A stretch of 49,376 nt of DNA, taken from the IMG/VR virus record IMGVR_UViG_2531839433_000005, positions 1 through 49,376 of that record; one strand, written 5' to 3'. Numbering within the stretch: position 1 is the first letter of the stretch; each line of letters opens with the position of its first letter. Below, piece by piece: positions 17,331 through 17,640 of the stretch. The notes below the pieces were generated by a model. That model ran no database searches and was not told the DNA's origin. It saw only the letters and a program-made list of their open reading frames with translations. The translations under genes and the position numbers were made by a program. This stretch comes from a virus. Its lineage: Duplodnaviria; Heunggongvirae; Uroviricota; Caudoviricetes.

Positions 17331-17406
17331 GGCCCTTTAGCTCAGTGGTGAGAGCGAGCGACTCATAATCGCCAGGTCGCTGGTTCAAATCCAGCAAGGG
17401 CCACCA
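17331..17406 (+). tRNA. tRNA with CAT anticodon (Ile2/Met type)
   Basis: 76 nt; acceptor GGCCCTT/AAGGGCC, D-arm TAGCTCAGTGG, anticodon loop CTCATAA, T-loop GGTTCAAATCC, 3' CCA; resembles E. coli ileX as recalled. Confidence 0.75.
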
Positions 17407-17407
17407 A

Positions 17408-17484
17408 CCGTCACCAGTTCATCAGGAAAGAGCGTCAACCCTTTAAGTTGAGTGTGCGAGGTTCGAGTCCCCGGTGGCGGTCCA
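17408..17484 (+). tRNA. Atypical tRNA-like element (possible anticodon TTT; may be a pseudo-tRNA)
   Basis: Acceptor CCGTCAC/GTGGCGG with one G-U pair, T-loop TTCGAGT, 3' TCCA; D-arm and anticodon loop (C at position 33) are non-canonical. Confidence 0.35.
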
Positions 17485-17486
17485 GT

Positions 17487-17562
17487 GCCGACTTAGCTCA
17501 GTAGGTAGAGCAACTGACTTGTAATCAGTAGGTCACCAGTTCGATTCCGGTAGTCGGCACCA
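17487..17562 (+). tRNA. tRNA-Thr (anticodon TGT)
   Basis: Acceptor GCCGACT/AGTCGGC, D-arm TAGCTCAGTAGGTAGAGC, anticodon stem ACTGA/TCAGT with loop CTTGTAA, T-loop TTCGATT, 3' CCA. Confidence 0.7.
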
Positions 17563-17565
17563 TAT

Positions 17566-17640
17566 GCGGGTATCGTATAATGGCTATTACCTCAGCCTTC
17601 CAAGCTGATGATGCGGGTTCGATTCCCGCTACCCGCTCCA
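17566..17640 (+). tRNA. tRNA-Gly (anticodon TCC), T4-like
   Basis: Acceptor GCGGGTA/TACCCGC, anticodon stem TCAGC/GCTGA with loop CTTCCAA, T-loop TTCGATT, 3' CCA; resembles phage T4 tRNA-Gly as recalled. Confidence 0.7.

Follow-up and report, generated by a model that had tools for sequence, protein, structure and literature searches.

Why does a prophage of Escherichia coli carry four tRNA-like elements, packed almost without gaps, between its late antiterminator and its lysis genes, and is the second of them, which departs from the canonical tRNA at several positions, a working gene? The sequence in question is a virus record (Caudoviricetes; IMG/VR IMGVR_UViG_2531839433_000005, positions 1 to 49,376), a stretch of 49,376 nucleotides (nt) that we refer to as the window; it is an E. 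coli lambdoid prophage, and the tRNA array occupies positions 17331 to 17640. We read the array as an ordinary lambdoid-prophage tRNA cassette made of three sound genes and a fourth, element 2, that is probably decaying, and we give this reading a probability of about 0.6.

Composition of the tRNA array

ARAGORN returned exactly the four intervals that an earlier inspection of the letters (hereafter the sequence-only reading) had proposed as tightly packed tRNA-like elements:

17331..17406, + strand: element 1, anticodon cat (ARAGORN); tRNA-Ile2 (ileZ; anticodon CAU), predicted to read AUA once lysidinylated; Rfam 72.5 bits; tRNA-Ile in the Prokaryotic Genome Annotation Pipeline (PGAP)
17408..17484, + strand: element 2, anticodon ttt ('Lys ttt' in ARAGORN); putative argN-family tRNA gene by homology to argN, anticodon UUU, with C33 and the extra changes C4U, U8C and C11U
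17487..17562, + strand: element 3, anticodon tgt (ARAGORN); tRNA-Thr(UGU), copy of host thrU; Rfam 73.8 bits
17566..17640, + strand: element 4, anticodon tcc (ARAGORN); tRNA-Gly(UCC), copy of host glyT; Rfam 65.6 bits

Spacers of 1, 2 and 3 nt divide the elements, each of which encodes its own terminal CCA. Their placement between Q with its pR'- and tR'-like sites and the lysis genes also held: Q ends at 17120, the promoter and terminator sites follow, and the holin and endolysin genes begin at 18108. Covariance-model scoring, put forward in the sequence-only reading as a check, bore out three of the elements firmly. With the Rfam tRNA model (RF00005; gathering score 29 bits), elements 1, 3 and 4 aligned over model positions 1-71 with the scores listed above, and their E-values over the whole window (1e-12 to 1e-14) are far beyond chance. 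Element 2 was not reported in searches of the whole window, of 471 nt or of 1 kb, because the default speed filters miss it; searched alone (83 nt, laxer filters) it gave a full-length cloverleaf alignment of 31.3 bits, as against 65.6 to 73.8 bits for its neighbours. Three things had escaped the sequence-only reading: that the CAT gene is recognizable as ileZ, that element 2 is a homologue of argN and that the array has a predicted promoter of its own.

Three genes with sound tRNA sequences

Element 1 is identical to ileZ of a Shiga toxin 2 (Stx2) phage (76/76) and matches K-12 ileX at 68 of 76 positions. Its acceptor stem, GGCCCTT/AAGGGCC, holds the pairs C4:G69 and C5:G68, by which, according to what Ikeuchi et al. 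reportedly found in 2005, TilS tells tRNA-Ile2 from tRNA-Met. The sequence thus identifies it as tRNA-Ile2 (ileZ) of the lysidine type, lysidinylation itself being predicted. A tRNA-Met was considered and rejected in view of the full identity to ileZ, the Ile2-type pairs and the PGAP name; with its label 'Met', ARAGORN makes a mistake that is common for lysidine tRNAs.

The other two sound genes are copies of host genes. Element 3 is identical to K-12 thrU (76/76). Element 4 matches K-12 glyT at 73 of 75 positions (97.3%), and both differences belong to one compensated acceptor-stem pair, C6:G67 having become U6:A67. The sequence-only reading had likened this gene to the tRNA-Gly of phage T4 rather than to a host gene; a T4 origin was rejected, since T4 tRNA-Gly reaches only 86.7% (65/75 aligned columns). 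It had also held that exact matches to host tRNA genes would speak against its view of the cluster, and such matches turned out to account for half of it, the Thr gene agreeing with thrU to the last base.

The likely source is the host thrU-tyrU-glyT-thrT operon, whose thrU-tyrU-glyT part is matched by the Thr-Gly half of our query at about 98.7% in 5,421 of 5,426 genomes. The order thrU then glyT is the same, and the TAT spacer between the two prophage genes equals the first base 3' of host thrU followed by the last two bases 5' of glyT, so that capture of the operon and subsequent loss of tyrU would fit. Unlike the operon, the prophage copy has neither tyrU nor thrT nor either of the host spacers; in the prophage, ileZ and element 2 precede it, and its Gly gene carries U6:A67. 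One metagenome contig (L246; OJZK01000151.1, 3268-3914) was considered as an intermediate of the capture, with the order ileZ, a Lys-like gene, thrU and a Tyr tRNA gene, the exact host thrU-tyrU spacer and no glyT after it. What follows the Tyr gene is a sequence that we take to be the tyrT-type downstream repeat. The contig was rejected as most likely a chimeric assembly formed through identical tRNA repeats, which urges caution with metagenome contigs around prophage tRNA genes.

Codon usage

Codons were counted per 1000 in the early and regulatory genes, in the late genes and in a 50-kb sample of K-12. ATA stands at 14.4, 3.7 and 2.7 in these three sets, ACA at 16.5, 8.7 and 4.9, and GGA at 12.7, 10.1 and 6.7, so that AUA, ACA and GGA, all host-rare, are 1.4 to 5 times commoner in prophage genes. 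These are codons that the three sound genes would read: AUA by ileZ (tRNA-Ile2) once lysidinylated by TilS, ACA by the thrU copy, and GGA, together with GGG, by the glyT copy. Because these host-rare codons are enriched in the prophage, an extra supply of tRNAs for them is most likely the benefit that the three genes confer. AAA is not enriched in the prophage genes; codon supply fits the three sound genes and gives no rationale for a UUU gene.

Origin of element 2

The cloverleaf of element 2 comprises 21 pairs, with a single A.C mismatch, which falls in the T stem. The anticodon loop is CCUUUAA, with U35 and U36. The element departs from the canonical tRNA core in having C8 and C33 for U8 and the near-universal U33, while A14, GG, TTC and A58 are present; with the T-stem mismatch and U73, these departures make it atypical, as had been supposed. 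The sequence-only reading was right about an odd anticodon loop, which lies in C33, and overstated the oddity of the D arm, whose stem is a normal one of 4 bp, one of them G.U, and whose 9-nt loop includes GG.

BLAST comparisons with phage records showed that the block of ileZ and element 2 is common to Stx and PPompW phages, whose records name the second gene either argN/tRNA-Arg or tRNA-Lys. Element 2 aligns with argN of Stx phages without gaps at 62 of 77 positions (80.5%), with the same flanks and likewise 1 nt after ileZ. argN is a canonical tRNA-Arg(UCG) with U8 and U33; element 2 lacks its anticodon, having U35 in place of C35, the main determinant for ArgRS. With E. coli lysT it shares the UUU anticodon; it matches lysT at 46 of 79 aligned positions and has U73 instead of A73 as discriminator. 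Its sequence thus marks element 2 as a homologue of the Stx-phage argN (tRNA-Arg UCG) in which the anticodon appears to have switched to UUU. A shifted register of the loop, in which CCUUUAA would present the ochre-suppressor anticodon UUA, was set aside, nothing being found in its favour.

The history of the slot can be followed in viral and metagenome contigs, where the position after ileZ yielded 70 distinct alleles. They comprise a UCG class, a UUU class with C33 (commonest allele 87 copies, window allele 22 copies), a rarer UUU class with U33 and the loop CUUUUAU, and a single UCU allele (L155). Across the 52 distinct intact alleles of 77 nt, 95.2% of the cells of the alignment pair in the cloverleaf. 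Between the UCG and UUU classes there are double compensatory changes at alignment columns 7:67 (UA/CG), 28:44 (CG/UA) and 31:41 (GC/AU), and in the U33 lineage a fourth pair is compensated. This pairing and these compensatory changes indicate that the UUU lineage arose from a working tRNA whose fold was kept during the switch. The Rfam tRNA scores are 53.2 bits for the U33 UUU lineage, 44.4 for the common C33 allele, 43.0 for argN and 31.3 for the window allele.

Many occupants of the slot are wrecks, among them a form of 80 nt whose anticodon arm has been replaced, deletions to 66 and 70 nt and, in the PPompW phages, a deletion of the D stem. In L139, L133, L232 and about 25 other viral loci, a widespread argN wreck of 80 to 87 nt with an unrelated replacement of the anticodon arm stands right after ileZ. 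The length of its G-run varies and ARAGORN does not call it, so that these arrays look as if they held ileZ and argO only.

A second anticodon switch in such cassettes occurs in Escherichia phage SerU-LTIIb (L279, 1106-1181), in which a gene with the body of thrU bears the anticodon UCU (Arg) and not UGU, with a few changes in the D arm and anticodon stem; the same Gly gene comes next. The recruitment of tRNA genes by anticodon switching is said to have been described by Saks et al. in 1998. The likeness lies in one body serving several anticodons (UCG, UCU and UUU on the argN body; UGU or UCU on the thrU body of SerU-LTIIb), and the difference in that the present switches occurred among prophage cassettes within one species. 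In lambdoid prophages the tRNA cassette after Q is thus a module that is reshuffled and evolves fast, the tRNA body staying fixed while its anticodon switches.

Probable decay of the window allele

Three substitutions, C4U, U8C and C11U, set the window allele apart from the common one. Together they cost the cloverleaf about 5 kcal/mol in stability, and a fold other than the cloverleaf is favoured by 3.8 kcal/mol; for judging tRNA-likeness, minimum-free-energy folding was discarded as uninformative, the best folds of ileZ and argN not being cloverleaves either. PGAP annotates the common allele as tRNA-Lys and leaves the window allele unannotated in every exact-match genome among the matches listed.

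As a reference for divergence we used two prophages that encode an identical Q protein. Relative to these, the spacer between Q and the tRNAs differs by 4.3-11.9% and the Q gene by 10 changes, all silent. Element 2 differs at 3 of 77 positions (3.9%), ileZ and the Thr gene together at none of 152, where about 6 changes would be expected at ~4.3% (P ~0.002 by our own Poisson estimate), and the Gly gene by its one compensated pair only. Element 2 has diverged at the local neutral rate. Over 124 arrays its deviation from the consensus is 0.0134 per site, two- to fourfold that of its neighbours (0.0033, 0.0050 and 0.0075).

It seems, then, that the element 2 of the window is a pseudo-tRNA or a weak gene rather than a working one; we hold this to be probable, and the pseudo-tRNA suggested in the sequence-only reading is indeed the most likely reading of it. 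Element 2 would fill the argN slot with a gene derived from the same body as argN, in which the anticodon changed to UUU and, in the lineage found here, U33 also changed to C. The window allele would have added three further substitutions, including the loss of the conserved U8, by neutral drift. Most likely it is decaying or at best weakly functional, and it may be kept since it is wedged between working tRNAs.

Several observations weigh against this account. The neutral-rate argument amounts to three substitutions, two of which still pair, as G.U. Among variants of the UUU allele, those that break a pair are all rare and those that preserve wobble are common, which hints at residual constraint. 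The window allele occurs exactly in 171 complete genomes and still lies above the Rfam gathering score, and the origin of the UUU lineage and its spread to about 15% of genomes are unexplained except as hitch-hiking. Nor is codon supply a tight fit for the sound genes: in the late genes, to whose codon usage the sequence-only reading had looked, AUA, ACA and GGA do exceed the K-12 sample, though modestly (ATA 3.7 against 2.7), and AGA, AGG and CGA are enriched too, although the phage lost its Arg tRNAs.

The same rarity of pair-breaking and frequency of G.U-preserving variants would be expected if element 2 were a processing spacer, that is, a non-decoding element whose tRNA shape is kept so that the 5' cut by RNase P frees the 3' end of ileZ, 1 nt upstream, and the precursor stays processable. 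RNase P recognises the acceptor and T arms, and these are the best-kept parts of all alleles; the 1-, 2- and 3-nt spacers and the CCA encoded on every gene also agree with such a role. Yet bodies that lack the D stem or measure 66 to 87 nt persist in many prophages with an intact ileZ, which therefore seems not to need an intact neighbour, and RNase P acting at the next good tRNA could, with 3' exonucleases, do the same job. We consider a spacer function quite improbable, and decay of a former tRNA gene remains our preferred reading of element 2.

Possible counter-defence role

The UUU lineage as a whole invites another explanation, namely that it is a working tRNA-Lys, unrelated to the host's in body and anticodon arm, that replaces host tRNA-Lys(UUU) destroyed by AriB, P2 Old or PrrC, anticodon-arm nucleases that are common in E. 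coli, with the Thr(UGU) gene adding to the supply of the other prime target. The prime targets of PARIS AriB are tRNA-Lys(UUU) and tRNA-Thr(UGU), cut just before A41 within U36AAUCA41, and U39A abolishes the cleavage (PMC12409363). For P2 Old, the classic system against lambda, the substrates are tRNAs whose anticodon stem holds paired CNG motifs, above all thrU, and over-expression of host thrU protects little or not at all (PMC12445682).

The anticodon arm of element 2 carries neither signature. At positions 36-41 it reads UAAGUU, the corresponding sequence in both host lysT and the Thr gene being UAAUCA, and it has CAA/UUG instead of CNG motifs; across the UUU lineage the arm bears C33 or U38 together with G39-U40-U41, and CNG motifs are absent. 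Paired CNG motifs (CUG/CAG) are present in the Thr gene, argN has both (CAG/CUG) and lysT is without them (UUG/CAA). A single step, moreover, separates each UUU lineage from the host-like loop CUUUUAA (U33C in one, A38U in the other), the compensatory changes kept the cloverleaf during the switch from Arg to Lys, the UUU tRNA is without a codon-usage rationale, and the lineage is found in 798 of 5,426 complete E. coli genomes (~15%).

Against this stand the properties of both genes. The Thr gene is host thrU and has both nuclease motifs; as a protection against P2 Old it was rejected, given these motifs and the little or no rescue published for thrU. By established identity rules, C33 and U73 are marks of poor decoding and poor LysRS charging, and with the T-stem A.C mismatch they argue that element 2 would do both badly. 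By chance, almost any unrelated tRNA arm would be free of the nuclease motifs, the allele of the window drifts neutrally, and other lineages carry disruptive deletions. We therefore regard replacement of cleaved host tRNAs as possible and unlikely. That the UUU lineage is a functional prophage tRNA-Lys, made by an anticodon switch from a phage tRNA-Arg and possibly refractory to nucleases, with the window copy as a partly decayed allele, is doubtful to the same degree.

Compared with known nuclease-resistant phage tRNAs (the tRNA-Lys of T5 against PARIS, phage tRNA-Thr against P2 Old), the UUU lineage shares the target anticodon UUU and an arm without the published recognition motifs, a likeness at the level of sequence. 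It differs in residing in a temperate prophage and not a virulent phage, in having a body from a phage tRNA-Arg, in the C33 and U73 that make its function doubtful, and in being accompanied by a Thr gene of the sensitive host sequence. Were the UUU lineage charged and nuclease-resistant, counter-defence by phage tRNAs would take in common temperate prophages as well as large virulent phages, and it would explain a lysine tRNA without codon rationale in one E. coli genome in seven. The decaying cassette member nonetheless remains our preferred view of the copy studied here.

Predicted transcription of the array

Three putative transcription signals precede the array:

17104..17132, + strand: pR'-like sigma-70 promoter (TTGCAA, 17-nt spacer, TATATT), overlapping the end of Q; 9/12 matches in a consensus scan; putative, by position
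17184..17210, + strand: tR'-like intrinsic terminator AAAACCCGCCCACAAGCGGGTTTTTTT, hairpin and T-run by sequence, its palindromic hairpin also found in the scan
17293..17321, + strand: predicted sigma-70 promoter of the tRNA array (TTGCAA, 17-nt spacer, TATTAT, followed by the G+C-rich CCTGCGCCC), from the consensus scan

The third ends 10 nt before the first tRNA gene, and over 72 distinct upstream sequences both of its hexamers are at least 90% conserved while the flanks vary. In enterohaemorrhagic E. coli a primary transcription start that drives the tRNAs has been mapped between tR' and stx2AB (PMC7547250). The array is thus predicted to have its own dedicated, conserved sigma-70 promoter, from which it would be transcribed; after Q-mediated antitermination it may also be read through from pR', to judge by its position. 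RNase P and 3' trimming would then cut the transcript into tRNAs with genome-encoded CCA ends. We infer the transcription, processing and aminoacylation of the array tRNAs, as we do the loss of function of element 2.

The conserved promoter bears on a further explanation, that the whole array is neutral baggage, a recombination linker in which tRNA genes serve as short identical sites for module exchange and bring no benefit to phage or host. In BLAST, the matches to other phages do stop precisely at the 3' terminus of element 2 (query positions 283-285), Thr-Gly alone occurs behind a different Q gene, and ileZ with element 2 occurs elsewhere with argO. Promoter hexamers conserved over diverged flanks, the unchanged ileZ and Thr genes (0/152 differences) and the compensated Gly gene, however, argue for purifying selection, and we consider an array without benefit very improbable. 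Maintenance of the three sound genes for their tRNAs is the reading that we retain.

Between the pR'-like promoter and the terminator lies a predicted RNA of about 70 nt (17136-17210), with sub-threshold Rfam similarity to isrJ (24.5 bits, threshold 37) and isrK (22.7 bits, threshold 50), both small RNAs of Salmonella prophages; it sits where lambda 6S RNA or StxS does.

Distribution and related systems

The four-gene cluster is present in 600 of the 5,426 complete E. coli genomes. When one genome per species was searched, the UUU-type anticodon arm was matched only in E. coli and Shigella flexneri, which leaves no wider diversity for a covariation test within the UUU lineage. The U33 lineage occurs in about 20 genomes, where it is annotated as tRNA-Lys.

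The closest relative is the ileZ-argN-argO cassette of Stx phages (933W type). It shares the position after Q/pR'/tR' and before the late genes, an ileZ identical at 76 of 76 positions, a homologous second gene (62/77) behind the same 1-nt spacer, and a homologous upstream promoter. It differs in its second gene, which has UCG and U33 where ours has UUU and C33, and in its argO (UCU), the place of which is taken here by the host-derived Thr(UGU) and Gly(UCC) genes. Cassettes of this type have been familiar since the genomes of the Stx phages appeared, and the present cluster is already annotated in public records; our literature search found no description of a switched argN derivative. The main yield of the analysis is accordingly a correction of annotation: the CAT gene is tRNA-Ile2 and not tRNA-Met, the Thr and Gly genes are copies from the host and not T4-like, and the odd element is a probably decaying relative of argN.

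Prophage context

The window equals the corresponding sequence of E. coli strain 504239 (NZ_CP025859.1) save for one single-nucleotide polymorphism (position 4652) and an inverted 3.1-kb tail-fibre segment. The genes on either side of the array are:

16431..17120, + strand: late antiterminator Q gene, Pfam PF06323 Phage_antiter_Q, 307 bits
from 18108: holin and M15 endolysin genes, downstream of the tRNA array

On the near-identical record PGAP names the former 'bacteriophage antitermination protein Q'. Unlike in Stx phages, there are no stx genes downstream of the array. The 470 nt from the Gly gene to the holin gene (17641-18107) contain an open reading frame (ORF) of 86 amino acids (17759-18019) without a Pfam or PADLOC match, and several terminator-like hairpins, including those at 17738-17759, 17915-17934, 17958-17975 and 18067-18082; in the 2.4-kb region scanned there are 11 terminator-like sites, where shuffled sequences would lead one to expect 3.4.

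Directly after the M15 endolysin gene lies an IS66-family element (ISCro1; 19403-22018), and PGAP describes cro (6965-7208) and the tail-tip gene J (38497-41975) as frameshifted on the near-identical record. With these lesions the prophage is probably defective. The inverted segment (44767-47885; 3,119 bp) agrees exactly with this interval of strain 504239 when reverse-complemented. Tail-fibre and tail-fibre-assembly genes in opposite orientations surround the segment, and next to it is a small ORF for a 'recombinase family protein' (48001-48195); the segment looks like an invertible host-range switch, here in the other orientation.

Just upstream of the ydfU(DUF968)-rusA-Q block is RosmerTA, an anti-phage toxin-antitoxin pair (12915-14640):

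12915-13508: RmrT, PADLOC 308 bits
13519-14640: RmrA, PADLOC 665 bits, with helix-turn-helix and Peptidase_M78/ImmA domains

It was the only system found when five candidate accessory ORFs (four of them hypothetical) were scanned for a tRNA-targeting nuclease that could be a self-immunity partner of the array, and nothing connects it with tRNA. Three RNA genes reach the Rfam gathering score, the sok antitoxin RNA (with hokD) at 12416-12741, DicF at 4418-4468 and IS009 at 49130-49333, and all three are typical of cryptic prophages of the Qin/Rac kind.

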